Positions 5,136 through 21,530 of a stretch of DNA of 21,654 nt are shown here, piece after piece. Each line of letters begins with the position of its first letter. The stretch's first letter is position 1. A model generated the notes under the pieces. The model saw nothing but the letters and a program-made list of their open reading frames with translations, was not told where the DNA came from and did no database searches. The position numbers were made by a program, and so were the translations under genes. Origin of the DNA: Candidatus Hermodarchaeota archaeon. Its GTDB lineage: Archaea; Asgardarchaeota; Lokiarchaeia; Sigyniarchaeales; SOKP01. Location: positions 1-21,654 of the forward strand of contig JBHLLO010000050.1 in assembly GCA_048885535.1 (NCBI GenBank), read 5' to 3'.

Positions 5136-5520
5136 TTGAATCCCTCATTTTTCAAGCCAATTATCTAATTAAATCAAGTAATTATAATACAATGTAAATA
5201 AAAATCTTTTATTGCTTTTTTAATTAAATCCAATTATTTTTTAGTTTTATATTATTTAATTTCTCAATCAATTAACAAATAGTTTTCGAAATAGGACAAG
5301 AATGACTATTTCTTTAATTATATTTTCAGATTTAACTTATAACGCTAAATAACAAATTATTTAAATAGATACAACATAAAAATTAAAATAAGTATAAAAA
5401 AAATACACTTCTCGATATTAAATTTATTTTCAATATTGGAAGTTTATCAATTTCAAATTTTAAAAAGTCTAAGAACAGATATATATAATTGTAAATTAAG
5501 AGGTGGATGTGTAAAAAAAG

Positions 5521-7464
5521 ATGGAAAAATCTGATACGCATCGGATTGGATACTATGCTTGTCAATGAGGTATTAATATTCGCGGAAAAGTTGATTGTAA
5601 TAAATTAGTGGAGTATGCAAAAGAATTAGATGGTGTCGTAATTTCAAAACAACACAGCTTCCTTTGTACCGAGAGTGGACAAAATGAGATTATTGAGGAT
5701 ATAAATGAAAAAAAATTAAATTGTATTGTGGTATCTGCTTGAACTCCACGTACTCACGAACCTGTGTATAGAGGATCGATAGCCAAAACAGATTTAAACC
5801 CATACTTTTTCCAAATGGTAAATGTGCGCGAGCATTGCTCATGGTGTACAGAAAGCAATGAAGAAGCATTAGATAAAGCTAAGATTCTCATAAAGGCAGG
5901 TGTTGAACGAGGTAAGCGTCTTGAAGCTGTACCAATTAAGACGGTACCTGTTGAAAAAGCAAGTTTGGTTGTTGGTGGGGGAATAGCAGGTATGAATGCG
6001 GCTTTAGATCTTGCAAATCAAGGAATTAAAGTATATTTAGTGGAGAAAAACACAACTATTGGTGGCAGAATGGCAGAATTAGATAGAACATTTCCTACGG
6101 ATGATTGTGCCATTTGAATCTGTGGTCCTAAGATGCTTGAAGTAAATCGAAATGAGAATATTGAAATTCTTAGTTATTCAGAAGTAAAAAAGGTTGAAGG
6201 TTATGTAGGAAATTATGAAATAACTGTAGAAAAGAAACCTCGATATATTAACCCTGAAACCTGTAATGGATGCGGAGCCTGTGCTGAAGTATGTCCTACT
6301 TACACAACAAACTATTTTGATGAGGATTTAGGAGCAAGAAAAACAATTGATATTGCATTTGGTCAAGCTGTTCCGTTTTTATATGATATTAACAGGGAAA
6401 CTTGTGTAGAATGCTTTAATTGTGTTGACGCTTGTGAATTGGATGCTATAGATTTCAGTCAAATACCAGAAGAGGTTAAATTCAAAGTTGGAACAATTAT
6501 TATTGCCACTGGATGGGACATATATGAACCTTTTGGAGAATATGGATATGGGGAATTCACAAACGTGGTCACTCAATCTCAACTTGAAAGAATGTTAGCT
6601 CCAAATGGACCATTAGAAGGACATGTTCGGAGGATTTCTGATGATAAGAAACCTAAGGAGATTGTTTTTATTCAATGCGTCGGAAGCCGAGATACTGAAA
6701 GAACATATTGTAGTGGCGTTTGTTGTATGCTTGCCTTAAAAAACGGAAAGTTACTAAAAGAAGAATTTCCAGGTGCTAATATTACTATTTGCTATATAGA
6801 TATTAGAACTAATGAAAAAGGTTTCGAAGAATATTACCAAAGGGCAAAAGATTCGGATATTCGAATGATTCGTGGGAAAGTGGGGGAGATTTCAGAAGAC
6901 CCAGAAACAAAAAACGTTAAAATACGTGTATATTCATCCTTAACTAATGAAATTATTAATATTGATGCCGATTTAGTAATTTTATCAACAGCAGCATTAC
7001 CTTCTAAAGGTACTCAACAAATTGCTAAGGTTTTAAACTTGGACGTTGATAAAAATGGATTTTTAACTGAATCTCATTTTGGTTTAATGCCACAAGAAAC
7101 AAAAACTAAGGGGATTTTCATTGCTGGATTTGCCCAAGGTCCTAAGGATATAGCTTATTCAGTTTCACAAGCAAGAGCGGCAGCAAGTAAGGTTGCAGAA
7201 CTAACCTCTGCTGGTGAAATTGACTTAGAATTAATTGTAGCAGAAGTAGATAAAGATTTTTGCATTTCATGTAGAAGATGCGAAAAAGAATGCCCAAAAG
7301 GAGCAATTAAGATTACGGAAAAAGAAGGAGCTATCGTTGATGAAATAAATTGTGACGGATGCGGTGTATGCGCGAGTTGTTGTCCTACTCAGGCTATTGA
7401 CATACGATATTATAGAGATCACCAGTTGTATGCTGAAATTGAGGCTCTATTAGGAGGTGATTAA
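5521..7464 (+). CDS. hdrA: Heterodisulfide reductase subunit A, selenoprotein with three UGA-Sec codons (647 aa)
   Basis: One frame from ATG 5521 to TAA 7464 with in-frame TGA at 5566-5568 (RIGYYACQUGINI), 5740-5742 (VVSAUTPRTHE) and 6115-6117 (TFPTDDCAIUICGPKM). Has the GGGIAG FAD motif, internal and C-terminal 2[4Fe-4S] ferredoxin motifs, and the CVGSR...CSGVCC cluster motif. GAGGTG SD at 5500-5505. Confidence 0.95.
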
Positions 7465-7468
7465 ATAG

Positions 7469-7909
7469 TTGGAGGATAGTTTAAAAATATTGATGTTTGC
7501 TTGTCTAAAATGAGGATATAGCGCAGCTGATTTAGCGGGAGTTTCTCGATTAAAATATACACCCTCAGTTAAAATTATAAAAGTTAGGTGCACTGGACGA
7601 ATTGATGTGAAGCACATTTTATATGCGATCAAATCTGGAGCTGATGGTGTTATGGTAGTTGGATGACGACCAGATGAATGTCAATTTAAAACAGGCAATT
7701 TCAAAGCTCAAACACATGTAGATCTAGCTAATAGAATATTAGAACGCCGAGGATTCGGGAACCAACGAATAAATCAATATTGGTTAAGTGGCGCAGAATC
7801 TGAAAAGTTAGTTAAAAGTGTTGAAGATACGGTTGAAAAAATAAGACGTATAGGTAAAAATCCTATTTACAAAATAAAATCAAAAAAAAAATCAAGCGTA
7901 GCCCCTTAG
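7469..7909 (+). CDS. mvhD: MvhD/VhuD/FlpD [2Fe-2S] subunit, selenoprotein with two UGA-Sec codons (146 aa)
   Basis: Not in the ORF track. TTG start 8 nt after a GGAGGTGA SD. Translates as MEDSLKILMFACLKUGYSAADLAGVSRLKYTPSVKIIKVRCTGRID...GADGVMVVGURPDECQF...WLSGAESEK...SSVAP*, with TGA at 7511-7513 and 7664-7666. Confidence 0.95.
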
Positions 7910-7969
7910 AATGAATCTTATAAGGAAATATTTGTTATAAGACGACTAACCATGCGTTGGTTAAGGGGT
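7901..7969 (+). promoter_or_regulatory. SECIS element (eukaryote/Lokiarchaeota-type, AUGA/GA core)
   Basis: Outer helix GCCCCTTA (7901-7908) pairs with TAAGGGGT (7962-7969). The core ATGAA (7911-7915) sits opposite CGAC (7943-7946). A perfect 8-bp upper stem TCTTATAA/TTATAAGA (7916-7923/7935-7942) is capped by the loop GGAAATATTTG, which contains AAA. It lies immediately 3' of two UGA-containing genes. Confidence 0.85.
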
Positions 7970-8016
7970 GTTTAAATAATTTTAAAAGTTTAAAAAATAG
8001 AATAAATGGAAATAAT

Positions 8017-9513
8017 ATGGTTCAGGTTGTGAATGAGAAATCATTCGGTGGAATTTCTCCGAAAAATTTAATTGAAGCAACATATAAAGCTTCGGAAAAT
8101 TTCCAAATTAGAGCATTTTACGAATCGAAAGATGAAATCTTGAAAGCTGCAAAATACTCTGAGAGAGAGTTTTTTGAGATAATAGATGCCATGTTAGACG
8201 CTGAAACTGAACGAAAGATTGTATTAGAGACGCTTAGAGGAAATAAACCCTTATTTTTAGAAGAAATAATAAAAATTGTAAAAGAGTTTCCACCTGATAA
8301 TGTTATACGGGATATAATCTATTTAAAGGAACAAGGATTTATTGAGGAACACATAGAGGTTAAAACTAAAATAGTTATAAAAAAAGTAAAAGGGGAAGAA
8401 AAGGAAGTAGAAGAAAAAGAATATTTCTATAGATATGAAGTAAAGGAATTACCAGATGATTTCATAGAAAATTATTTAGACCCTATTTCAATTGTTTTTG
8501 ATGCTGGTGTATGCTGCCAATGCGGATGGTGTTCCTCAATTTGCCCAGTCAACGCCATTGAAGTCACAGCAGACACTTTAGAAATTGATGATGAAAAATG
8601 TATGAAGTGTGGTTTATGCTTTACCGTTTGCCCCCGTACTTTTTCAATAGATCAAGCCTATAAAAGCATTAAGCAATTAGATAAATATCTTACCTGGTCA
8701 GAGAAAATTGGTGCCTATCTAAATGCTTATTCAGGAGCTACGACCAAAGACGCAATAAAAAAAGTGAAACAAGATGGTGGAGTTGTTACATCCTTGTTAG
8801 AATATCTATTAGAGAATAAGTTGGTGGATGCGATCATTGCTGTGCAACATTCAAAAGATTTATGGAGACCAGAACCAGTAATAGTTGATAATGTAAAGGA
8901 TTTATATAAGACTGGTGGTACTAAATATGCAAATGCTGCCTCGTTATCAATTATCGAAGCTGCTAAAAAGTATGAGAGAATAGCAGTTGTGGGGGTTCCT
9001 TGTATGATGAAAGCAATTGAGAAAGGAAATCTCTTTCCAAGTGGGTTACCTTTTTTTAAAAACATAAAATATACAATTGGATTGTTTTGTATGGAATCTT
9101 TTCCTTATGAAGGAGTAGTACAGTTAACTAAAGACAAATTCGATAAGGATATTAATGATTTAGTAAAAATGAATATTGATAGTGGAAAGTTCATAATTAA
9201 TTTAAAATCTGGTGAAAAATTAGATATAGATTTGAAAGAAGTTAAATCTTATGCTCGTAATAATTGTCATTATTGTGAAGATTTAACTTCTGATTATGCT
9301 GATATTTCAGTTGGTTCAATTGGATCCCAAGGAGGATGGTCTTCTGTTATTACTCGAACAAAGGAAGGAGATGAAATTTATCAGGGCGCAGTAGATGCTG
9401 GATTAATTGAATCTCAGAGTCTAAAAGAAATTAAGCCAGGATTAGGTCTTTTGGAGCGAATATCAGGATTAAAAAGAAAAAATTGTAAAATAATTGAACT
9501 TAAAAAGGAGTAA
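8017..9513 (+). CDS. FrhB/FdhB-family coenzyme F420 oxidoreductase beta subunit with N-terminal helical/winged-helix-like extension and ferredoxin domain
   Basis: Motifs CCQCGWCSSICP, CMKCGLCFTVCP, QDGGVVTSLL, GTKY, VGVPC, IGLFCME and CHYCEDLTSDYADISVGSIGS. The start was moved to ATG 8017 because the track start at 7957 lies inside the SECIS. Confidence 0.88.
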   Translation: MVQVVNEKSFGGISPKNLIEATYKASENFQIRAFYESKDEILKAAKYSEREFFEIIDAMLDAETERKIVLETLRGNKPLFLEEIIKIVKEFPPDNVIRDIIYLKEQGFIEEHIEVKTKIVIKKVKGEEKEVEEKEYFYRYEVKELPDDFIENYLDPISIVFDAGVCCQCGWCSSICPVNAIEVTADTLEIDDEKCMKCGLCFTVCPRTFSIDQAYKSIKQLDKYLTWSEKIGAYLNAYSGATTKDAIKKVKQDGGVVTSLLEYLLENKLVDAIIAVQHSKDLWRPEPVIVDNVKDLYKTGGTKYANAASLSIIEAAKKYERIAVVGVPCMMKAIEKGNLFPSGLPFFKNIKYTIGLFCMESFPYEGVVQLTKDKFDKDINDLVKMNIDSGKFIINLKSGEKLDIDLKEVKSYARNNCHYCEDLTSDYADISVGSIGSQGGWSSVITRTKEGDEIYQGAVDAGLIESQSLKEIKPGLGLLERISGLKRKNCKIIELKKE

Positions 9514-10729: not shown

Positions 10730-11890
10730 ATGAGTTTACTAAAAAAGTGTTATCAATGCGGACGTTGTAGTGGTGTCTGTCAATTAAGTAAAGTGCAAAA
10801 GTTTCCTCCAAGTAGGATAATTCAATTAATCTTAGAAGGGTTTGAGGATAAAGTATTGAATTCAGGTGTTTTATGGGATTGCCTTACGTGTAATCAATGT
10901 TTAAAAGATTGTCCTGAGAAAATCAACTTTGCAGATATAGTTAGAATTGCAAGGTATAAAATGAGACATGAAGCAAACCAAAAATCCGATGAACTCATTG
11001 CTCATAAGGGAATTTACACAACAATAGCAGAAATAATGAGTAGACCATATATAACTCCAGAAAGATCATTGGATTGGGTACCGAAAGGCTGTAAAATATC
11101 CGATAAAGGAGAGCTTCTTTATTATGTAGGATGTCTGCCTTTTTATGAATATGAATTTGAAGATTCAGATACTATAGCTAAAAGTACTCTAAATCTTTTA
11201 TGTCAAATTGAACAGAAACCAATAGTAGTTTTAAAAGAAGAAAGTTGCTGCGGTCACGATCTTTACTGGGGACAGGGCAAATTGAAGACGTTTATCAAAT
11301 TAGCGAAGAAGAACTTGGAGAAATTCGAAAAAGCGGGAGTCTCCACCATAATAACCGCATGTGCAGAATGTTATCGAACCTTTAAAGTTGATTATCCTAA
11401 TATTTTTGAGAACTTTTCAACTAAATTTAATGTAAAACATATAATTGAATATATTTACGATAAATGGAAACAAAATAAAATATTTTTTAAGAAACCAAGT
11501 AAAAAAGATATAGATACAACATTCACGTATCACGATCCTTGCAGATTAAGTAGATTTTTACCAGAGGACAATAATTTAACTGAAAAAGTAAGAGAAATTT
11601 TTAATGAATTAACAAAGCTAGGTTTTAATTTTAAGGAAATGAAACATAATAAGCAAAATTCTCTCTGCTGTGGAGTAAATTCTTGGATGAACTGTAATGA
11701 GAGATCTAAAGCCCTTAGATATAAACGTATGCTAGAAGCAAAATCAGCAGCATCCTTAATGATTACTACTTGTCCTAAATGTGAAATTCACTTTAAATGT
11801 CTACAGAATGATTTCGAAGATATTGCAAATATTAAGATTTTGGATTTTTCAGAATTCATAATAAACAACCTAGAAATAGTTGAGGGATAG
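10730..11890 (+). CDS. HdrD/GlpC-like Fe-S protein (HdrC-type 2[4Fe-4S] domain plus two CCG domains); start may be ATA at 10643
   Basis: Motifs CYQCGRCSGVC and WDCLTCNQCLKDCP, then YYVGC...CCG...TACAEC and YHDPC...CCG...TTCPKC. Confidence 0.88.
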   Translation: MSLLKKCYQCGRCSGVCQLSKVQKFPPSRIIQLILEGFEDKVLNSGVLWDCLTCNQCLKDCPEKINFADIVRIARYKMRHEANQKSDELIAHKGIYTTIAEIMSRPYITPERSLDWVPKGCKISDKGELLYYVGCLPFYEYEFEDSDTIAKSTLNLLCQIEQKPIVVLKEESCCGHDLYWGQGKLKTFIKLAKKNLEKFEKAGVSTIITACAECYRTFKVDYPNIFENFSTKFNVKHIIEYIYDKWKQNKIFFKKPSKKDIDTTFTYHDPCRLSRFLPEDNNLTEKVREIFNELTKLGFNFKEMKHNKQNSLCCGVNSWMNCNERSKALRYKRMLEAKSAASLMITTCPKCEIHFKCLQNDFEDIANIKILDFSEFIINNLEIVEG

Positions 11891-11894
11891 TAGA

Positions 11895-14800
11895 ATGGAA
11901 GGATCTGTCTTAGTGATAGGTGGTGGTATAGCAGGAATTCAAACTTCATTAGATTTAACAGAGTTAGGATTCAAGGTCTATTTAGTGGAAAGAAATCCAT
12001 CAATCGGTGGCCGTATGGCACAACTTGATAAAACTTTTCCAACAAATGATTGTAGCCTTTGTATCTTGGCTCCTAAAATGGTGGAAGTCTTTAGAAATCC
12101 AAATATAGAACTCATGACTTATCATGAAGTATTAAGTGTATCTGGGAAAGTTGGAGACTTCACAATTAAAATTTTAAAAAAGCCAAGATATATAGATGAA
12201 ACGAAATGTAAGGGATGTGGCGATTGTTCTCAACGTTGTCCAAAAATTGAGGTTCCAAATTTATTTGATATGAAGTTAGGCAAAAGAAAATCTGTATACA
12301 TCCCCTTCCCGCAAGCTGTGCCTCCTATTTATCTAATAGATCCTGAAATCTGCCTTAAATTGACTAAAGGGGTATGCGGTGTATGTGAGAAAGTCTGTGA
12401 AGCTGAAGCAATTGATTACGAACAGAAACCTCAAGAAATTAACATTAATGTGGGAGCAATTGTGGTTGCAACTGGGTTTGATATGCCCGCAGAAGAATTA
12501 TCATCCAGATGGGGTTATCATTATAAAAATGTAATTAGTGCTTTAGAATATGAAAGAATTTTATGTGCTTCAGGACCATTCGGAGGGCACGTCTTACGTC
12601 CAAGTGATGAAACTGAGCCTGAAAAGATTGCTTTTATACAATGCGCTGGTTCAAGAGACTTACATGAAAATGTCCCTTATTGCTCAAGTGTTTGTTGTAT
12701 GTATATCAGTAAGGAAGCTATTATCACTAAAGAACATTCAGAAAAGGCAAAATGCTTTGTCTTTAGACACGATATTCGAGCTTATGGTAAAAACTTCTAT
12801 GAATTTACCCAGAGAGCGCAAAATGAATATGGTGTAGAATATTTTCAAACTAAGATAAGTCGAATCGAAGAGGATCCAGATACTAATGATTTGATTATAC
12901 ACTATGAAGATTTGCAAACAGGAGAGTTTAAGGATTTCAGAAGTAATTTAGTAGTATTAGCTACACCATTAGTTCCATCAAGTGGTACAGTTGAATTGAG
13001 CAAAAATGTAGGTATAGAATTAGATAAATATAATTTCTTTAAAGAAAGATCATATTTTAATAAATCACTGTCATCAAAGGAGGGTGTGTTCTTATGTGGT
13101 TTTTGTCAAGGACCAATGGATATTCCAGAAACCGTAGCAGATGCAAGTGGAGTAGCATCCCAAATTGCTTTACTACTAAATTCTGTAAAGTTCAAAGCCA
13201 TAAAAGAAAAAATTAGGGAGAAAGCTGAATTAGAAGTTAAAATCTCTGATGAACCTCGAATCGGGGTTTTAATTTGTCATTGCGGGATAAATATTGGAAA
13301 ATATATTGATGTCTCTGGAGTTGTGGAATATGTGAAAACTTTACCTTACGTAGCTCACTGTGAAGCCAATCTATATTCTTGTTCAAGTGATTCTCAAGCA
13401 CGAATTAAAGAAGTGATTGAGGAAGAAAATTTAAACAGGTTTATTGTTGCTTCTTGTACTCCTCGAACTCATGAAGCCTTGTTTCAAGAAACCTGCCAAG
13501 AAGCCGGTTTGAATAAATACTTGTTCGAGATGGTTAATATTCGCGATCAATGTTCTTGGGTTCATATGAATGAGTACGAATTTGCTACTGAAAAAGCCAA
13601 AGATTTAATTAGAATGGCTGTCGCAAAAGCTCGTTTATTGAAACCTCTCAAAGAAGCACTATTAGACATAACTCCAACAGCCTTAATAATTGGTGGTGGA
13701 GTTTCAGGTATGACTGCAGCTTTAAATATCTCTAATCAAGGATTTAAAGTATTTTTAGTAGAAAAAGAAAAGAAACTAGGAGGAATTTTGAATAACTTAA
13801 ACATTTTATACCCTGTTCATGAGGATGCTTCAAAATTTCTGGAGAATATAATAAGTAAAGTAAAAAGCAACAAAAACATTGAATTATTTTTAACCTCTAA
13901 AATTGAAAGTATAAAAGGTTATATTGGAAATTATGATGTTGCAATTATTGACTCAAAACAAAAAGTTCATAATTGTAAAATTGGAACTATTATAGTCGCA
14001 ACAGGAGCCCAAGAATTAAAACCAAATGGTATTTTTCAATACGATGAAAAAAACAAAAACGTAATTACTCAACTCGAATTGGAGGAGAAATTAAAAAGCA
14101 AAAATGTATCATGGTTAGATAAAATTGAAAGAATAACGGTTATTTTATGCGTAAACTCTCGGCAAAAAGAAGGAATAACATATTGTTCTAATGTTTGCTG
14201 TGGAGTAGGTATTAAGAATTTAAGTTTATTAAAGGAATTAAAACCTGAAATTGAGATTGTCGTTCTTTATAGAGATTTGCAAATGGCTAAGAAAGAATTT
14301 GAAGATTATTATCGAGAGCGTCGAAAAAATGCAATATTTCTTAGATATGATTTAGAAAGATTACCAAAAATCAAAAAAGTCAATAATAAAGAGGAAAAAT
14401 ATAAAATTAGTTTATTTGATACTAATTTACAAGAAGATATTGAATTTGATACAGATTTAATAATACTGTCAACTCCTATGATTCCTGATAGTAACTTAAA
14501 AGAGTTAGCAAAAATGCTTAAAGTACCATTAGATAAGAATGGATTTTTCTTAGAAGCCCATGTTAAACTTAGACCTTTAGATTTCGCAACTGACGGAATA
14601 TTTCTAAGTGGTTGCGCTCAATGGCCGAAAAATGTTCAAGATGCAATTGCTCAAGCTAATGGTGCTGCTGGAAGGGCTAGTAGATTTTTAAGTGCGAAAA
14701 CTATAACAACTTCAGGATTAATAGCTGAAGTAAATACAGGCAGATGTATTGGATGCGGAAAATGTGAATCTGTTTGCCCATATAACGCTATTGAACTTAA

Positions 14801-14978
14801 AGAAGTATTAATGGAGTTTGAGGAAATTAGCATAAAGGTAGCAAAATCGTTCATTAACACAGCATTATGTAAGGGTTGCGGTACTTGTGCGGCTACATGT
14901 CCAAACGGAGCAATTTCAGTTAAGCATTATGATTTTGATCAAATATACGCTATGATCGAATCTTATTTATTAGAATGA
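11895..14978 (+). CDS. hdrA: Large HdrA-like flavoprotein with two FAD modules (Cys-containing)
   Basis: Two FAD motifs (GGGIAG and GGGVSG), TFPTNDCSLCILAPKM, an internal CHCG...CTPRTHE...NIRDQCSW module and ferredoxin motifs. ATG 11895 follows a GAGGGA SD and matches the start of the paralog at 17365. Confidence 0.92.
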   Translation: MEGSVLVIGGGIAGIQTSLDLTELGFKVYLVERNPSIGGRMAQLDKTFPTNDCSLCILAPKMVEVFRNPNIELMTYHEVLSVSGKVGDFTIKILKKPRYIDETKCKGCGDCSQRCPKIEVPNLFDMKLGKRKSVYIPFPQAVPPIYLIDPEICLKLTKGVCGVCEKVCEAEAIDYEQKPQEININVGAIVVATGFDMPAEELSSRWGYHYKNVISALEYERILCASGPFGGHVLRPSDETEPEKIAFIQCAGSRDLHENVPYCSSVCCMYISKEAIITKEHSEKAKCFVFRHDIRAYGKNFYEFTQRAQNEYGVEYFQTKISRIEEDPDTNDLIIHYEDLQTGEFKDFRSNLVVLATPLVPSSGTVELSKNVGIELDKYNFFKERSYFNKSLSSKEGVFLCGFCQGPMDIPETVADASGVASQIALLLNSVKFKAIKEKIREKAELEVKISDEPRIGVLICHCGINIGKYIDVSGVVEYVKTLPYVAHCEANLYSCSSDSQARIKEVIEEENLNRFIVASCTPRTHEALFQETCQEAGLNKYLFEMVNIRDQCSWVHMNEYEFATEKAKDLIRMAVAKARLLKPLKEALLDITPTALIIGGGVSGMTAALNISNQGFKVFLVEKEKKLGGILNNLNILYPVHEDASKFLENIISKVKSNKNIELFLTSKIESIKGYIGNYDVAIIDSKQKVHNCKIGTIIVATGAQELKPNGIFQYDEKNKNVITQLELEEKLKSKNVSWLDKIERITVILCVNSRQKEGITYCSNVCCGVGIKNLSLLKELKPEIEIVVLYRDLQMAKKEFEDYYRERRKNAIFLRYDLERLPKIKKVNNKEEKYKISLFDTNLQEDIEFDTDLIILSTPMIPDSNLKELAKMLKVPLDKNGFFLEAHVKLRPLDFATDGIFLSGCAQWPKNVQDAIAQANGAAGRASRFLSAKTITTSGLIAEVNTGRCIGCGKCESVCPYNAIELKEVLMEFEEISIKVAKSFINTALCKGCGTCAATCPNGAISVKHYDFDQIYAMIESYLLE

Positions 14979-14997
14979 GAATAAGGAGAAAATTTGG

Positions 14998-15435
14998 ATG
15001 CCAAAAGCAAAAGCAAAGGTGAAAGGTCAAGAATTTAACCCTGAAATCTTAGTATTCTGTTGTAACTGGTGTAGTTATGCTGGAGCGGATTTAGCAGGGG
15101 TTTCAAGGTTCCAATATCCTCCCAATATGAGAATAGTAAGGGTTATGTGTTCTGGAAGAGTCGACCCTGCATTTGTTTTAAAGGCTTTAAAGGAAGGAGC
15201 TGATGGAGTATTAATCACAGGTTGTCATATTGGTGATTGTCATTATATTTCCGGAAATGAGTATGCTAAAGAAAGATTTGAAAGATTGCATAATGTTATT
15301 ATTAAACAACTTGGAATTAATGAAAAAAGAGTAAGGTTAGAATGGGTCTCAGCGTCAGAAGGGAAGCGGTTTGCTGATTTAATTACTGATTTTACAAATC
15401 AGATAAAAGAGTTAGGACCTTTAAAAGTACTATAG
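14998..15435 (+). CDS. mvhD: MvhD/FlpD [2Fe-2S] subunit (Cys-containing)
   Basis: Motifs FCCNWCSYAGADLAG, RVMCSGRVDP, GADGVLITGCHIGDCHY and WVSASEG. AAGGAG SD upstream. Confidence 0.95.
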   Translation: MPKAKAKVKGQEFNPEILVFCCNWCSYAGADLAGVSRFQYPPNMRIVRVMCSGRVDPAFVLKALKEGADGVLITGCHIGDCHYISGNEYAKERFERLHNVIIKQLGINEKRVRLEWVSASEGKRFADLITDFTNQIKELGPLKVL

Positions 15436-17364: not shown

Positions 17365-20133
17365 GTGGAAGGTTCAGTTTTAGTTATTGGTGGGGGCATC
17401 GCTGGAATTCAAACATCGTTAGATCTAACGGAATTAGGGTTTAAGGTATTTTTAGTTGAGAAGGAACCATCAATTGGAGGTCATATGGCCCAATTTGATA
17501 AACTGTTTCCAAAGGATGATTGTAGTCTGTGTATTTTAGCTCCAAAGATGGTTAGTGTCTATAGAAATCCCAACATTGAACTTTTTACATTATCTGAAAT
17601 AAAAGAAGTAAAAGGAAAAGTTGGAAATTTCAAGGTAACTATTGTAAAACGTCCTAGATATGTTGATGAATCCAAATGCAAGGGTTGTGGTGATTGCGCT
17701 AAGCGCTGCCCAAAGATAGAAGTTCCAAATTTATTTGATATGAATTTAGGGAAGAGAAAGTCAATATATATGCTTTTTCCTCAAGCAACTCCTCCTGTAT
17801 ATATGATCGATCCTGAATTATGTTTATATTTAAATAGAGATGTATGTGGAGTGTGTAAAAAGGTATGTAAAGGGGATGCAATTGATTTTGAACAAGAATC
17901 TCAAGAAATTGAGATAGAAGTTGGAGCAATTGTAGTAGCGACTGGATTTGATATGCTTGGTAAAGAGCTCCCCCAAAAATGGGGTTATCAATATAAAAAT
18001 GTAGTTAATGCTTTAGAGTATGAAAGGATACTGTCTCCTACTGGACCTTTTGGACCTCAAATCCTAAGACCTAGTGATGAAGTTGAGCCTGAAAGTATTG
18101 CTTTTGTTCAATGTGCAGGCTCTGGGTATTTAAAAGAAAATGTACCCTATTGTTCCCGTGTTTGCTGTATGTATGTTGCTAAAAATGCTGTGTTAAGTAA
18201 GAATTATGCAGAAAATACTCAAATAACTATATTTAGACATAATATTCGAGTATTTGGAAAAAATTTTTATGATTATACTAAAGCTGCACAAGAAGAATAT
18301 GAAATTAATTACATAAATTCAGAAATCAATTCTATTGAAGAAGATCCCGAAACTAATGATTTGATCATTAATTATGATGATTTAAAAACTGGAGAAAGCA
18401 ATTTATCTTTCCGGGTTAAACTTGTTGTGTTAGCTCCTCCTCTAATTCCTTCAAAAGGTGCCTCAAATTTAGCAAAGATTTTAGGAATTGAACTTGATGA
18501 TTTTGGTTTTTTTAGAGAAACATCGTATTTTAATAAATCGCTTTCTTCTAAAAATGGAATATATCTATGTGGTTTTTGTCAGGGTCCTATGAATATCTCT
18601 GAAACTGTGGCTCATGCTAGTGGAGTAGCTTCACAAGTTGCAACCTTATTAAATTCGGTTAGATATTCCTTGATACGGGAAAAGGAAATTGATATACGTC
18701 CTGAAGAAGAAATCATTGATATTACACCTAGAGCCTTAATAATTGGTGGGGGTATTTCAGGTATGACTGCTGCATTAAATATTAGTAGTCAGGGATTTGA
18801 AGCTGTTATCGTAGAAAGAGAAAACATGTTGGGGGGAAATTTGAATCGGTTACACCAAATATATCCAATAAAGCAAGATCCTTCATCTATCGTTAATGAA
18901 CTAAGAGAAAATGTGGATACCGCGAATAACATCGAAGTATTTCTAAATTCTAAAATTGAGGAAGTGAATGGTTCTATTGGAAAGTATGAAATAGTTATTA
19001 GAAAAACTGACTCTGAAATAAAAAAGATGATTGTAGGAGTTATAATTATAGCTACTGGAAGTCAAGAATTTAAACCTTATGGTTTCTTCCAATATGGTGA
19101 AAACTTTAAAAATATTCTTACTCAAATGGAGTTAGAACAGAGACTAAAAAGTAATGATTTTTCCTGGCTTAAGAATATAAATCATTTCACAACAATTATG
19201 TGTGTTAATGCAAGACAAAAAGGAGGATTCGCATATTGTTCAAATATTTGTTGTAGTAATACTATTAAAAACATTAATATTCTAAAGGAACTAAAACCAG
19301 ATCTTGAGGCGGTTGTGCTTTTTAGGGAACTCCATATGGCTAAAAAGGAATTTGAGGATTATGTAAGTAAAAGGAAGAAGTTAGCTAACTATTTAAAATA
19401 CGATCTAGAAAACATACCAGAGATTATCAACATTAAAGAAAAACCTGAGAAATTTGAAATTAAATTAAGGGATGCCCAAAATACTGAAAAAAGTATAAGC
19501 TTTAAAACTGATTTGATAATTTTATCAACTCCTATGATTCCACCTGAAGGAATAGACGAATTAGCAAATATATTAAATGCCCCCTTAGATAAATTTGGGT
19601 TCTTTATAGAAGCTCATAAAAAGTTACGACCATTGGATTTTTCAGCTCATGGTGTTTTTGTTTGTGGGTGTGCTCAATGGCCAAAAAATATTCAAGACTC
19701 AATTTCAGAAGCGAATGGAGCTGCAGGAAGAGCAAGCAGGTTTTTAAATATAAGAAAAATATCTACAACAAAATTAGAATTGCTTTCATTTTTACTTTCA
19801 ATAGAATGCTTTTTCAAGGATATCAAAGTGAATGCTGAAAAATGCAACGGGTGTGGAAGATGTGTAGAGGTTTGTGAATTTAAGGCAATTTCTCTTAATG
19901 ATCTAAAACAAGAATATGAGGATGTTAGTATTGCTACAAAGAAAGCCTTAATAAATTCAGCTATTTGTAAGGGATGCGGAAAATGTTCAGCAACATGTAG
20001 ATTAAAAGCAATATATCCGCGACATTATGACTTTAAACAAATCTCAGCTATAATTGACCCTTATTTTCTAGGAAAAGTGGAATCTGAACAGATAACCTCT
20101 AATAGTGAAGAATTCTCTCTAATTAAAAGTTAA
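17365..20133 (+). CDS. hdrA: HdrA-like two-FAD-module paralog lacking the internal CHCG Fe-S module
   Basis: Collinear with and highly similar to 11895-14978; both begin MEGSVLVIGGGIAGIQTSLDLTELGFKV. GTG start with a GGGGA SD. Confidence 0.9.
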   Translation: MEGSVLVIGGGIAGIQTSLDLTELGFKVFLVEKEPSIGGHMAQFDKLFPKDDCSLCILAPKMVSVYRNPNIELFTLSEIKEVKGKVGNFKVTIVKRPRYVDESKCKGCGDCAKRCPKIEVPNLFDMNLGKRKSIYMLFPQATPPVYMIDPELCLYLNRDVCGVCKKVCKGDAIDFEQESQEIEIEVGAIVVATGFDMLGKELPQKWGYQYKNVVNALEYERILSPTGPFGPQILRPSDEVEPESIAFVQCAGSGYLKENVPYCSRVCCMYVAKNAVLSKNYAENTQITIFRHNIRVFGKNFYDYTKAAQEEYEINYINSEINSIEEDPETNDLIINYDDLKTGESNLSFRVKLVVLAPPLIPSKGASNLAKILGIELDDFGFFRETSYFNKSLSSKNGIYLCGFCQGPMNISETVAHASGVASQVATLLNSVRYSLIREKEIDIRPEEEIIDITPRALIIGGGISGMTAALNISSQGFEAVIVERENMLGGNLNRLHQIYPIKQDPSSIVNELRENVDTANNIEVFLNSKIEEVNGSIGKYEIVIRKTDSEIKKMIVGVIIIATGSQEFKPYGFFQYGENFKNILTQMELEQRLKSNDFSWLKNINHFTTIMCVNARQKGGFAYCSNICCSNTIKNINILKELKPDLEAVVLFRELHMAKKEFEDYVSKRKKLANYLKYDLENIPEIINIKEKPEKFEIKLRDAQNTEKSISFKTDLIILSTPMIPPEGIDELANILNAPLDKFGFFIEAHKKLRPLDFSAHGVFVCGCAQWPKNIQDSISEANGAAGRASRFLNIRKISTTKLELLSFLLSIECFFKDIKVNAEKCNGCGRCVEVCEFKAISLNDLKQEYEDVSIATKKALINSAICKGCGKCSATCRLKAIYPRHYDFKQISAIIDPYFLGKVESEQITSNSEEFSLIKS

Positions 20134-20141
20134 AAATAAAA

Positions 20142-21374
20142 TCATAAATCTTTTTTATCTTTGTTTTCAGTTTTCTTTGCAGAAGTATAGAGTATTATAA
20201 TTATAAAGATAAGTAAGAAAGAGACTATTAAAACAACTAAGTAGACCATTTCAATACCTCCATAATCATAAATACTATTATATATTATTGGAACAAGAGC
20301 TATTCCGATAAATTGTCCTGCTGTGACTAATCCTGCTAAAGCCCCCCTCCTTTCCTTTGATAAAGTTTGACTATAGAACATCATTGAAGGTAATAGAATA
20401 CCTCCTGCAGCTCCTGTGAAAATTAATCCAATTGTAGTATAGAAAAGAAGGCTTAAATTAGTGATATCTCCCAAGATTAAGAAGATTAAGATACTAATAT
20501 ATAATGAAATCAAACCAGAAATTATTGCAATCTTCACTCCTTTAAGTTTTATAATATTACCAAAAATTACACCAGCTATAGCACCAGTTAATCCTGCTGA
20601 ACCGATGACCCATCCTGTTATGTCTTCTGGTAGTACACCAGTAAAAGCTCTTGAAGTCATAGTAATTATCGCTAAATAAGTTTGAGTAATTAAGAATGCA
20701 GTAAAGATCAAAAATAACACTACAGAGCGACGAATCTCATATGAAATATGCTTTAAAAACAATCGCATTCCAACATTTTGGGGAGATGCTCGGGTTGGTT
20801 GTTTTAAAGCAATTAAAATAATGAATCCAATAAGAGTGATTATAATAAATAATAGATACAAATATTGCCATCCAAGAAAAACAATTTGACCTGCTATTAT
20901 TGGGCCAAAACCTACCCCTAAATTTGCGACAGCACCTAAATACCCCATCTTCTTCGGGATATTTGGACCTTTAGTAATATCTGTCATTAATGCAATTAAA
21001 ACGGGATTTACAAAACCAAAACCAATACCTCCTAAAACATTTGCCACGACATATATTGGTAATGACATAGATAACATTGCAAAAACCATACCTAATCCGA
21101 AGATAGATAATCCGAATAATATTACATTAAAACGCCCTTTAATATCAGAAATCGATCCAGAGAATAACTGAGTAATAGCGAATGGAAACATAAATGAAGG
21201 AATCGCAACAAATATTGCGCTTTCAGCTACACTAAAGTCCACTGAGAGGATTCCAAATAAAACCAATATTACATTTCCAGTTAAGGGTCCTAACGCAAAA
21301 AGGAGATAAATTGTCATCTCAATAAAAATAAAACTTTTAGCGTTCTTACCAGATTTCCTTCCATCTTTTTTCAT
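20142..21374 (-). CDS. Major facilitator superfamily transporter
   Basis: About 12 hydrophobic helices. MFS motif A (GSISDIKGRFNV), GVGFGPIIAG and KERRGALAG. Confidence 0.9.
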   Translation of the reverse strand: MKKDGRKSGKNAKSFIFIEMTIYLLFALGPLTGNVILVLFGILSVDFSVAESAIFVAIPSFMFPFAITQLFSGSISDIKGRFNVILFGLSIFGLGMVFAMLSMSLPIYVVANVLGGIGFGFVNPVLIALMTDITKGPNIPKKMGYLGAVANLGVGFGPIIAGQIVFLGWQYLYLLFIIITLIGFIILIALKQPTRASPQNVGMRLFLKHISYEIRRSVVLFLIFTAFLITQTYLAIITMTSRAFTGVLPEDITGWVIGSAGLTGAIAGVIFGNIIKLKGVKIAIISGLISLYISILIFLILGDITNLSLLFYTTIGLIFTGAAGGILLPSMMFYSQTLSKERRGALAGLVTAGQFIGIALVPIIYNSIYDYGGIEMVYLVVLIVSFLLIFIIIILYTSAKKTENKDKKDL

Positions 21375-21530
21375 AGTAATTCATACTTTCATTTTTATAC
21401 CAGTTAATCTGAATTAAATTTAATATCAATTAAAGGTTTAGGTTATAGAATTATACGTAAAAGACCGGTTTCACGAATTTTTGTTACTTAACACCTAATA
21501 AGAGGTATAAATAAAGCTAAGGATCAATAT

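Follow-up and report, generated by a model that had tools for sequence, protein, structure and literature searches.

Can a single selenocysteine (Sec) insertion signal serve the UGA codons of two adjacent genes? This question is raised by a locus in the window, the whole stretch of 21,654 nucleotides analysed here, where the hdrA and mvhD genes contain five in-frame TGAs and a candidate SECIS element follows mvhD. The arrangement itself is known. For Lokiarchaeota, Mariotti et al. 2016 (PMC4989117) described HdrA-VhuD pairs in which a single lokiSECIS follows VhuD and up to six UGAs occur over ~2 kb, and deduced a polycistronic mRNA. Huang et al. 2024 (PMC11227280) repeated the deduction of a shared SECIS and extended it to Asgard archaea under the name hdrA-frhD. 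The original prediction presented such a unit as hidden. As the arrangement was published for Lokiarchaeota in 2016, the window is a further well-preserved example of hdrA-mvhD with a shared SECIS, not a discovery.

The hdrA-mvhD gene pair

When TGA is translated as U, each of the two genes forms a single open frame, with three TGAs in hdrA and two in mvhD, exactly as had been predicted (Table 1). When translation table 11 is used, both genes break into fragments; two such fragments of hdrA were submitted to an exact-sequence look-up, and neither is present in the public collection. The genes lie on the same strand and the predicted spacing of 4 nt between the hdrA stop and the TTG start of mvhD is confirmed by the coordinates. 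When the 15 orthologs are considered together with the window, a gap of 4-8 nt separates the two genes in 15 of 16 cases, and in the remaining case they overlap (-11).

Candidate Shine-Dalgarno boxes were found before both genes. The GAGGTGGA motif occurs at the equivalent place in most of the 15 ortholog upstream regions, and a GAGGTGAG variant in one of them (counted by eye; two of the 15 regions end slightly downstream of the motif position). For mvhD, the candidate box GGAGGTGA lies within the final hdrA codons, and GGAGG is found inside the hdrA 3' end at 13 of 16 junctions, with a variant at two and none at one (again counted by eye). The mvhD start codon is TTG in the window and ATG at the same codon in all 15 orthologs. 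The stop codon of hdrA is TAA in 15 of 16 genes, TAG in one and TGA in none. Avoidance of TGA in this position would be expected if UGAs far from the SECIS undergo recoding, but the argument is weak, as TGA ends 15% of long frames and 16 related genes are a poor test. The mvhD stop is TGA in nine of the 16 rows.

The next gene downstream encodes an FrhB/FdhB-like protein of 498 amino acids, which has an exact match in the public collection (coding frame 8017-9510). In the orthologs, the downstream gene has a conserved ATG start 60-90 nt past the SECIS element.

The HdrA product carries Pfam Fer4 and FAD domains and aligns end to end, with no frameshifts, with solved HdrA structures (9sfi_A, E 1.1e-204; 5odc_A, E 1.9e-196). 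The MvhD product matches Pfam FlpD far over the cut-off (8.6e-44) and the PDB chain 9sfi_K (1.4e-36). NCBIfam HdrA2 assigns the hdrA product 777.9 bits, under the cut-off of 1100, and NCBIfam VhuD assigns the mvhD product 154.2 bits, under the cut-off of 215; for the methanogen equivalogs NF040770, NF041778 and NF045873 the scores all stay below the cut-offs (777.9 vs 1100, 604.6 vs 1400 and 154.2 vs 215). Judged by these scores, the two proteins are homologs within their families and fall outside the methanogen HdrA/VhuD equivalogs.

Table 1. Features of the hdrA-mvhD locus, in coordinates of the window
Feature	Position	Strand	Remarks
Shine-Dalgarno-like box before the hdrA start	5501-5508	+	GAGGTGGA
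hdrA, HdrA-family flavoprotein/Fe-S subunit	5521-7464	+	647 aa; 3 predicted Sec codons; stop TAA at 7462-7464
UGA, HdrA codon 16, N-terminal domain	5566-5568	+	U in 16/16; Cys in Cys-type paralogs and 9sfi_A
TGT, HdrA Cys49	5665-5667	+	U in 12/16; C in window, L014, L015, L023
UGA, HdrA codon 74, N-terminal domain	5740-5742	+	U in 16/16; Cys in paralogs and 9sfi_A
UGA, HdrA codon 199, canonical HdrA Sec position	6115-6117	+	U in 19/19; X in 9sfi_A
TGT, HdrA Cys301, inserted ferredoxin motif	6421-6423	+	U solely in L024 (genome G012), 1/16
Shine-Dalgarno-like box for mvhD	7453-7460	+	GGAGGTGA; within final hdrA codons
mvhD (VhuD/FrhD/FlpD family)	7469-7909	+	146 aa; TTG start; 2 predicted Sec codons; stop TAG
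UGA, MvhD codon 15	7511-7513	+	U in 19/19; X in 9sfi_K
UGA, MvhD codon 66	7664-7666	+	U in 18/19, C in L031; X in 9sfi_K
Candidate helix I, 5' strand	7901-7906	+	last two sense codons of mvhD; pairs with 7964-7969
Candidate lokiSECIS core	7911-7945	+	ATGA 7911-7914; 9-position stem 7915-7923/7935-7943; 11-nt loop 7924-7934 (GGAAA start, final G); GA 7944-7945
Candidate helix III	7947-7963	+	6-bp hairpin, 5-nt loop; between GA and helix I 3' strand
Candidate helix I, 3' strand	7964-7969	+	short T runs next
FrhB/FdhB-like gene	8017-9513	+	498 aa; Pfam FrhB_FdhB_N/C; 47 nt past junction

Conservation of the UGA codons

The core comparison consists of the window and 15 same-genus orthologs (16 rows), and further relatives bring it to 19 rows at some columns. 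The orthologs come from independent assemblies, their proteins are 80-93% identical, and their frames are full-length and carry the same TGAs. The conservation of TGA in relatives, on which the original prediction depended, was indeed observed: all five TGAs stand in Sec/Cys columns and are kept in the window and the 15 same-genus orthologs. In the ortholog alignment, in-frame TGAs are confined to Cys columns, and cysteine occupies the Sec columns in all five Cys-type hdrA-mvhD units of this genome. The ortholog in genome G012 has 5+2 = 7 UGAs across the two genes.

At three of the five UGA positions (HdrA 199, MvhD 15 and MvhD 66) the solved Methanococcus chains contain X, which is Sec in the associated paper; Sec197 of HdrA is described in PMC13518236. 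The canonical HdrA Sec residue is described as a ligand, contributed by the partner subunit, of the cluster of the N-terminal domain (PMC9012536), and as belonging to a Cys-Sec relay (PMC13518236). The Sec positions of HdrA, two in the N-terminal Fe-S domain and the canonical one, may cluster around one cofactor, and all three may matter for the enzyme.

Selenocysteine machinery and the genetic code

A search of the genome for Sec machinery, proposed together with the original prediction, was successful. The gene for tRNA-Sec with the anticodon tca was found on contig C73, and the SepSecS gene (E 2.4e-115) lies ~200 nt from it. The SelD gene has one in-frame TGA, so that SelD appears to be a Sec-containing protein itself. 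The best matches to PSTK (166 bits) and to EFSec, a GTPase (231.8 bits), fall under the curated cut-offs of 290.5 and 242.25, which come from models built on other lineages; the EFSec-like gene shares its contig with another gene of the Sec machinery. Of the genome's 1,251 long open frames, 191 end in TGA, which argues for recoding of TGA and not for its reassignment.

The SECIS element

The predicted element begins 2 nt past the mvhD stop. Its core lies 2,345 nt from the first TGA of hdrA, in agreement with the distance of about 2.35 kb given in the original prediction. The stem has eight standard pairs and one A.C at its first position, which is unpaired in 12 of 24 such elements, and three of the first five loop bases are A. 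In these 24 elements, 94.4% of the stem cells are paired, compared with 76.1% in shuffles, and all nine pairs change on both sides. The retention of the TGA columns and the covariation of the stem thus place the arrangement beyond chance.

A scan with the bare pattern (ATGA, 9, 11, 9, GA/AA, at least eight pairs) is unspecific, giving 41 matches in the genome and 18-29 in five shuffles, and it served as a lead only. A covariance model, R1, was built from the 24 elements, with the element of the window in the training set. When R1 was applied to both strands of the whole window with filters off, the sole element was found at 7903-7951 (62.3 bits, E 1.8e-12), and within the hdrA-mvhD unit the next-best score on the gene strand was 8.6 bits (E 2.3). 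Thus the claim of a lone SECIS after mvhD is upheld by R1. Of 21 loci from relatives or paralogs, 20 contain the mvhD 3' end, and in each of these R1 gave one strong match, downstream of mvhD; no second match was found on the gene strand in the 15 orthologs. Genome-wide, R1 gave seven matches, three of which follow the three Sec-type mvhD genes; matches also follow other TGA-containing ORFs, for example a VhuU-like ORF on contig C57. No genome-wide match follows any Cys-type unit, and none was assigned to hdrA alone. An Rfam cmscan of the window with E up to 10 gave four chance-level matches and no SECIS family.

Search for a second element

A second SECIS, whether 5' of hdrA or within it, would have undermined the original prediction; one was looked for, and none was recognised. 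A SECIS-like pattern inside hdrA (codon 447, window 6864) was considered and rejected. It has 9/9 pairs in three orthologs only and 4-6/9 pairs in the other 12 rows holding the motif; in the window it has 6/9 pairs and an R1 score of 6.3 bits. The pattern tracks a conserved peptide, and thus is a coding coincidence. The GAA_A-type pattern was searched in the form of the PMC11227280 model (lower stem, GAA...A bulge, upper stem of 3-6 bp, loop of 3-19 nt): on the + strand of 5136-8020 there were 0 matches, against 1.27 +/- 1.65 expected from 100 shuffles. The window and its orthologs share a conserved inverted repeat that lies ~75-110 nt ahead of the start of hdrA; it does not have the ATGA/GA core. 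R1 and the pattern scans detect only elements that are lokiSECIS-like or of the GAA_A type, and an element of another form might lie within the hdrA gene or the 385-nt spacer ahead of it.

Two distant relatives differ in their layout. In L031, hdrA is ~690 nt from mvhD and is followed by its own SECIS-like junction, with a weak R1 score of 19.1 bits. In L077, a SECIS-like hairpin lies directly 3' of hdrA, and no mvhD match was found in the ~440 nt between this hairpin and the contig end. Such distant relatives, where hdrA stands apart from mvhD and has a separate SECIS, provide a natural contrast that favours sharing in cis in the tight pairs.

Proposed mechanism and alternatives

We consider it likely, on the strength of the sequence comparisons, that the five UGAs of the hdrA-mvhD unit are read as Sec and are served by one shared 3' lokiSECIS. 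The two genes would form a tightly coupled unit encoding two selenoproteins, the flavin/Fe-S subunit HdrA and MvhD, its small Fe-S partner. The UGAs would be decoded by machinery of the archaeal/eukaryotic type (tRNA-Sec, PSTK, SepSecS, SelD, EFSec). The lokiSECIS after mvhD would be the only Sec insertion signal of the unit, and would serve any ribosome at a UGA of either cistron, over a distance of up to 2.35 kb; it could act on both cistrons because they would share one mRNA. Co-transcription, actual insertion of Sec, and action of the lokiSECIS on hdrA are what we infer from these data. The original prediction described one SECIS recoding five UGAs across two cistrons, and this is still the best explanation, given the single element, the machinery and the conserved columns. 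However, the processive recoding that it also envisaged is not a necessary consequence: every ribosome that pauses at a UGA of the same mRNA can be served by a 3' SECIS independently of the others, and nothing needs to be carried past the hdrA stop.

One alternative is that the hdrA UGAs are decoded via some other element, situated in the coding region or the 5' leader or acting in trans, and that the SECIS acts for mvhD alone, which may be transcribed separately from a promoter in the hdrA 3' end. Methanococcales selenoprotein genes are each said to have their own SECIS (PMC4989117), and the hairpins directly 3' of hdrA in the two distant relatives, the inverted repeat upstream of hdrA, and the restriction of R1 and the scans to two types of elements are all compatible with this. 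On the other hand, no second match above 8.6 bits exists inside the unit and none on the gene strand in the 15 orthologs; the match at 6864 is explained by coding, the GAA_A pattern does not occur in 5136-8020, where shuffles give 1.27 on average, and the upstream dyad lacks the core. We regard this possibility as unlikely.

It is also conceivable that TGA is read as something other than Sec, by near-cognate read-through with Cys or Trp or by a local change of the code, and that the hairpin is a terminator or a stabiliser; indeed, T runs follow the element, and its closing helix is as in a terminator. However, TGA ends many long frames of this genome and mvhD itself in more than half of the rows, the in-frame TGAs occur on Cys columns only, and the genome has the full Sec machinery. 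Moreover, the element has the ATGA/GA kink-turn core and an A-rich loop, and R1 matches follow other TGA-containing ORFs (VhuU-like, C57). Such a reading is very improbable. Finally, the fragmentation of both genes under table 11 could be taken to mean that hdrA and mvhD are pseudogenes, their TGAs being genuine stops or errors of assembly. Given identical TGAs in 15 independently assembled orthologs with full-length frames, and a frameshift-free alignment along the whole of a solved HdrA, this can hardly be credited.

Comparison with known systems

Shared Sec decoding by one lokiSECIS, as proposed here, brings the locus close to the Lokiarchaeota HdrA-VhuD pairs. In both, vhuD/mvhD follows hdrA on the same strand after a very short gap; HdrA is a multi-Sec protein in which the same set of five Sec/Cys positions is used, with the canonical one (about 197-200) among them; VhuD has two Sec, and the hdrA stop is never UGA. 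The lokiSECIS adjoins the VhuD stop and is made up of ATGA, a stem of 9 positions, a loop of 11 nt with a final G, and GA; it is missed by Rfam-type tools, and R1 recognised no further lokiSECIS within hdrA or close to it, either in the window or in the 15 orthologs. There are differences as well. The loop of the window element begins with GGAAA instead of AAAAA, and its first stem position is A.C; according to PMC11227280, loops starting with G[U/G]AAA are found mainly in other Asgard clades. The mvhD gene of the window has a TTG start, and the seven UGAs of the G012 ortholog exceed the maximum of six stated in 2016 (PMC4989117).

The methanogen HdrA and VhuD (9sfi) are homologous to the proteins encoded here, with the same hdrA-vhuD synteny and with X at HdrA 199, MvhD 15 and MvhD 66. 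However, the methanogen HdrA has one Sec, whereas that of the window has two extra in the N-terminal domain, and the methanogen genes have the archaeal type of SECIS, one per gene (PMC4989117). Methanogenesis is not implied for the organism of the window.

The candidate lokiSECIS resembles eukaryotic SECIS elements in its ATGA/GA core, in having unpaired A's where the apical loop starts, in its 3' location and in its proposed action at a distance. It differs from them in a shorter upper stem, in a message of two cistrons and in having no Rfam SECIS match, and the likeness does not extend beyond the ATGA/GA core and an A-rich loop. SELENOP similarly has several UGAs per message, but it has two SECIS elements (PMC4989117). 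SBP2 was not found in Lokiarchaeota, according to PMC4989117. The locus bears on the origin within archaea of the eukaryotic style of Sec decoding, with a distant 3' signal and a kink-turn core, and on the reach of one SECIS, in terms of both the distance and the number of UGAs. Both points were made in the 2016 and 2024 papers. Added here are three computational checks set beforehand, all with positive outcome for this genome, the contrast with distant relatives, and the conservation of helix I and of the inserted hairpin.

Proposed lower helix and inserted hairpin

The SECIS may fold as a three-way junction (7901-7969), which is possibly an undescribed detail. Besides the core stem (helix II), this model contains helix I, formed by the last two sense codons of mvhD and a downstream strand, and the inserted hairpin, helix III. 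Helix I is paired in the MFE fold both with and without constraints, and the energies of cognate and permuted flanks were compared. The helix III region has invariant C-C and G columns. RNAalifold applied to the MAFFT alignment A1 (17 sequences) gave helix II only, the columns of helices I and III being visibly out of register. Helices I and III are thus proposed from folds of individual sequences and from permutation and shuffle tests where relatedness is uncontrolled, and the greedy hairpin finder used for helix III took a wrong register in several rows. Neither the lower helix nor the inserted hairpin appears in the main text of PMC4989117 or PMC11227280; the supplements may show them.

It is a tentative and somewhat doubtful suggestion that this junction, with its helix of mvhD codons, is conserved, and that its extra hairpin, whose loop contains G-C, could dock an Asgard SECIS-binding factor and enable one element to decode as many as seven UGAs spread over two cistrons and more than 2 kb. 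The conserved helix I and the inserted hairpin offer a well-defined object for structure probing and for the search for the SECIS-binding protein.

Other frames with TGA in the window

The gene for a fused HdrA of 1034 amino acids at 11880-14984 was considered as a further case of in-frame TGA and rejected, as the TGA is its stop, two codons ahead of a TAA. Two TGAs occur in the frame of an MFS transporter at 20130-21392.

The hdrA-mvhD pair

Two adjacent genes, hdrA and mvhD, are fragmented when translated under table 11 and become open frames when TGA is read as U (Table). The five in-frame TGA codons that the original prediction had placed in two genes 4 nt apart were confirmed by these frames. 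The hdrA gene stops with TAA at 7462-7464. A GGAGG motif within the final hdrA codons precedes the mvhD start, which is TTG at 7469, 4 nt beyond the hdrA stop. The mvhD start codon is TTG in the window, whereas all 15 orthologs have ATG.

The first gene product is homologous to HdrA and carries Fer4 and FAD-binding domains. It scores 777.9 bits against NCBIfam HdrA2, under the model cut-off, and aligns over its entire length with HdrA chains of known structure (9sfi_A, E 1.1e-204; 5odc_A, E 1.9e-196). The second protein belongs to the MvhD/VhuD/FlpD type (Pfam FlpD, 8.6e-44; 9sfi_K, 1.4e-36). By homology, HdrA is a predicted electron-bifurcating flavoprotein and MvhD a small Fe-S link to an electron-input module; roles of this type are described in PMC13518236 and PMC9012536. 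Two FrhB-like genes and a CCG-domain HdrB/C-like gene follow mvhD on the same strand and suggest a predicted non-methanogenic Hdr-type complex. Further downstream lies a Cys-type unit with a fused double HdrA, in which TAA occurs two codons beyond the TGA stop. No SECIS element was found behind this unit (11880-15435).

An inverted repeat at about 5405-5445 precedes the hdrA start by about 75-110 nt. Its position is kept, and both half-sites co-vary between ortholog groups. It has no ATGA/GA core and may either bind a regulator or form a hairpin in the RNA.

Table. Features of the hdrA-mvhD locus and of the downstream Cys-type unit
Feature	Position	Strand	Remarks
hdrA	5521..7464	+	647 aa; three in-frame TGAs; open frame with TGA read as U
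hdrA TGAs	5566, 5740, 6115	+	sequence
mvhD	7469..7909	+	146 aa; two in-frame TGAs; open frame with TGA read as U
mvhD TGAs	7511, 7664	+	sequence
Helix I (lower helix)	7901-7906 with 7964-7969	+	5' strand is the final two sense codons of mvhD
ATGA	7911-7914	+	starts two bases 3' of the mvhD stop
Helix II (core stem), nine positions	7915-7923 with 7935-7943	+	eight standard pairs and one A.C adjoining the core
Apical loop, 11 nt	between the stem strands	+	GGAAA first, G last
GA	7944-7945	+	closes the core after the stem
Helix III (inserted hairpin)	7947-7963	+	6-bp hairpin with 5-nt loop, between GA and the helix I 3' strand
Fused double HdrA (Cys-type unit)	11880-14984	same as hdrA	1034 aa; sole TGA is the stop
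Cys-type MvhD	14998-15435	same as hdrA	follows the fused double HdrA

Predicted selenocysteine codons

The HdrA protein was searched against the genomes of 30 relatives. Orthologs with 80-93% identity and 3 to 5 in-frame TGAs were found in 16 of the 18 same-genus genomes, and a partial copy in one further genome. Fifteen orthologs were analysed together with the window (16 rows); locus L027 was left out, as its mvhD is truncated by the contig end. The original prediction expected TGA/Cys columns to be conserved in relatives, and this is the case: TGA stands in all 16 rows at each of the five positions used in the window, HdrA 16, 74 and 199 and MvhD 15 and 66. At HdrA 49, 12 rows have TGA, whereas the window and three further rows have Cys; HdrA 301 is TGA in one row and Cys in the remainder. 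Across the rows, HdrA has five Sec positions in total, the number given by Mariotti et al. 2016. The window's own genome also holds five Cys-type hdrA-mvhD units, and these have Cys at the Sec columns. In solved chains of the Methanococcus type, X stands at HdrA 199 and at the two MvhD positions, and HdrA Sec197 is named in PMC13518236, presumably the paper behind the 9sfi structure. We conclude from these alignments that the in-frame TGAs of hdrA and mvhD are predicted Sec codons.

TGA terminates 191 of the genome's 1,251 stop-to-stop frames that are 300 codons or longer, as well as mvhD in 9 of the 16 rows, and thus it is not reassigned. One ortholog (L024, genome G012) has Sec at all five known HdrA positions and two in MvhD, that is, seven UGAs before one SECIS, compared with "up to six" in the 2016 paper.

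The components of Sec biosynthesis and insertion named in the original prediction were sought in the 3.09-Mb assembly (112 contigs, 30% G+C), in which the window is an entire contig. tRNA-Sec (anticodon tca, ARAGORN), SepSecS (E 2.4e-115) and SelD were found, SepSecS about 200 nt from tRNA-Sec on contig C73 and SelD, with one in-frame TGA, on C80. The best matches for the other two are under the model cut-offs. An EFSec-like GTPase of 478 aa on C73 has selB as its best NCBIfam match (231.8 bits, cut-off 242.25; EF-Tu models at most 136), and archaeal PSTK is the top match for a protein of 269 aa encoded on C54 (166.6 bits, cut-off 290.5).

A probably shared SECIS element

The hairpin behind mvhD has the geometry of the lokiSECIS elements of PMC4989117: AUGA, a 9-bp stem, an 11-nt loop with A-rich start and final G, and GA. 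It was not detected by Rfam; according to the 2016 authors, existing SECIS tools missed lokiSECIS elements. We aligned 24 elements: that of the window, 18 from orthologous or paralogous hdrA-mvhD loci, and five from elsewhere in its own genome. In the stem, 94.4% of cells are paired, compared with 76.1% after shuffling and 40-51% with the partner slid, and none of 500 shuffles reached the observed pairing. Changes on both sides occur in all nine pairs. In 12 of the 24 elements, the two bases adjoining the core do not pair.

A covariance model built from this alignment (R1) was run with filters off on both strands of the whole window. It yielded a single strong match, behind mvhD (7903-7951, 62.3 bits, for a sequence of the training set), and no second match above 8.6 bits (E 2.3) on the gene strand within the hdrA-mvhD unit. 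No methanogen-type GAA_A element was found by a pattern scan of 5136-8020. Thus no second SECIS dedicated to hdrA was recognised in the unit by either search, in agreement with the original prediction. A pattern match within hdrA (6864) was rejected as a coding coincidence.

The same model was run with filters off on 21 relative and paralog loci (95.8 kb). Exactly one strong match was observed directly 3' of mvhD in all 20 loci holding the mvhD 3' end; the few remaining matches were antisense of the same stem, plus a weak one in locus L031. Genome-wide, three of the seven matches are behind the three Sec-type mvhD genes (the window, C18 and C28), with none behind Cys-type units and none available to any of the three Sec-type hdrA alone. 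In a survey with stricter filters, R1 elements were found in all 84 sampled genomes of the window's family and in 0/8, 0/1, 2/2, 1/3 and 1/2 genomes of other families of the class.

Mariotti et al. 2016 (PMC4989117) described tandem HdrA-VhuD pairs in Loki, in which HdrA carries several Sec, at any of five positions, and VhuD carries two. They found a single lokiSECIS behind VhuD and none elsewhere, and considered translation from a polycistronic mRNA the likely reading. According to Huang et al. 2024, hdrA and frhD always adjoin in Asgard genomes, and almost all pairs share one eSECIS-like structure. The accessible text of a 2026 review holds nothing further on the mechanism. The window shows every testable defining feature of the Loki HdrA-VhuD/lokiSECIS kind; thus the finding is real, was correctly read and is already known.

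Relatives with separated genes

In L031, from genome G025 of a different family in the order, hdrA has one Sec, and its TGA stop lies about 690 nt upstream of mvhD. A separate SECIS-like element (L031:3469-3560) is located about 30 nt beyond this stop and scores 19.1 bits with R1, versus 42.9 bits for the element behind mvhD. The two elements of the locus have similar stems, and the one behind hdrA forms the same three helices when folded. It looks like a duplicated SECIS or an ancestral two-signal state. In L077, a SECIS-like hairpin lies directly 3' of hdrA, and the final 440 nt or so of the contig have no mvhD match. Four loci from other families of the order (L069, L070, L072, L075) have a single SECIS-like hairpin behind mvhD. 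A relaxed scan gave only a weak element in L071 and no convincing element in L068, L073 and L076. Thus the signal is located after the last selenoprotein cistron of the unit, and a separate hdrA has its own. This placement fits sharing in cis within tight pairs.

Proposed decoding

The gap between hdrA and mvhD is 4-8 nt in 15 of the 16 rows, with an 11-nt overlap in the remaining one. Given this conserved gap, 4 nt in the window, and the mvhD ribosome-binding motif inside hdrA, we infer that both genes share an mRNA and that their translation is coupled. On this mRNA, the Sec-specific elongation factor, carrying Sec-tRNA, would be brought in by the 3' element and passed to any ribosome pausing at a UGA of either cistron. 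The UGA codons are 2,345, 2,171, 1,796, 400 and 247 nt from the core, the first distance agreeing with the predicted 2.35 kb. The original prediction also took the arrangement to imply processive recoding. However, nothing needs to cross the hdrA stop, and therefore processivity is not implied.

All 16 hdrA genes stop with TAA or TAG, and mvhD is often terminated by the TGA of the ATGA core. This fits the idea of the 2016 authors (PMC4989117) that a UGA too near the element escapes recoding and a distant one is recoded, although it is a weak test with related genes.

Sec16 and Sec74 lie within the N-terminal Fe-S domain of HdrA, and Sec199 is the canonical residue. The latter is described as an N-terminal cluster ligand supplied by a partner subunit (PMC9012536) and as part of a Cys-Sec pair between the N-terminal cluster and FAD (PMC13518236). 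The three HdrA Sec residues, four in most orthologs, may cluster round one cofactor.

A putative three-helix extension

All three helices are present in both the free MFE fold and the constrained fold of the window. A strict parse, requiring four or more pairs in helix I and three or more in helix III, found both helices in 21 of 30 additional elements, which came from 30 loci within the window's family. The sequence of helix I varies among lineages with pairing retained. In ad hoc tests uncorrected for relatedness, duplexes of the cognate 5' and 3' flanks of 31 element classes had a mean energy of -10.06 kcal/mol, versus -7.02 +/- 0.41 when permuted (reached by 0 of 10,000 permutations), and the longest helices III and I in 45 unique elements averaged 5.0 and 5.4 pairs, versus 3.96 and 3.70 with the 3' segment shuffled (reached by 0 of 200). 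Helices I and III were not recovered by RNAalifold on a MAFFT alignment, and helix I is absent from two elements behind other genes of the same genome (C58, C15). The element is predicted to be larger than the published stem-loop and the extension may be new: neither Mariotti et al. 2016 nor Huang et al. 2024 mentions the hairpin or the three-way junction in the main text, and the SECIS model of the latter is limited to core, upper stem and apical loop.

Other candidate elements in the genome

The third Sec-type pair, on C28, has a SECIS with a 13-nt apical loop (C28:25717-25767, minus strand); the N-terminus of its mvhD matched as a separate tblastn piece and is absent from the extension of the larger piece. 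An R1 match outside the training set (C34:23349-23397, plus strand, 44.3 bits) lies about 40 nt past a small zinc-ribbon-like frame ending in TGA-TAA, in which no internal TGA was seen. On C15 (16205-16505 and 17227-17377; L037), there is a small membrane open frame that contains a single in-frame TGA and whose end coincides with the TGA of a lokiSECIS core (47.9 bits). Its tandem paralog has CGA (Arg) at the internal TGA codon and a similar hairpin without the A-rich loop and final G. On C58 (18156-18204, minus strand; L036:406-915, minus strand), a lokiSECIS of 47.9 bits lies behind an open frame of roughly 170 aa that has no Pfam family. The frame has two adjacent in-frame TGAs directly after Cys and may encode an undescribed selenoprotein with a Cys-Sec-Sec motif.
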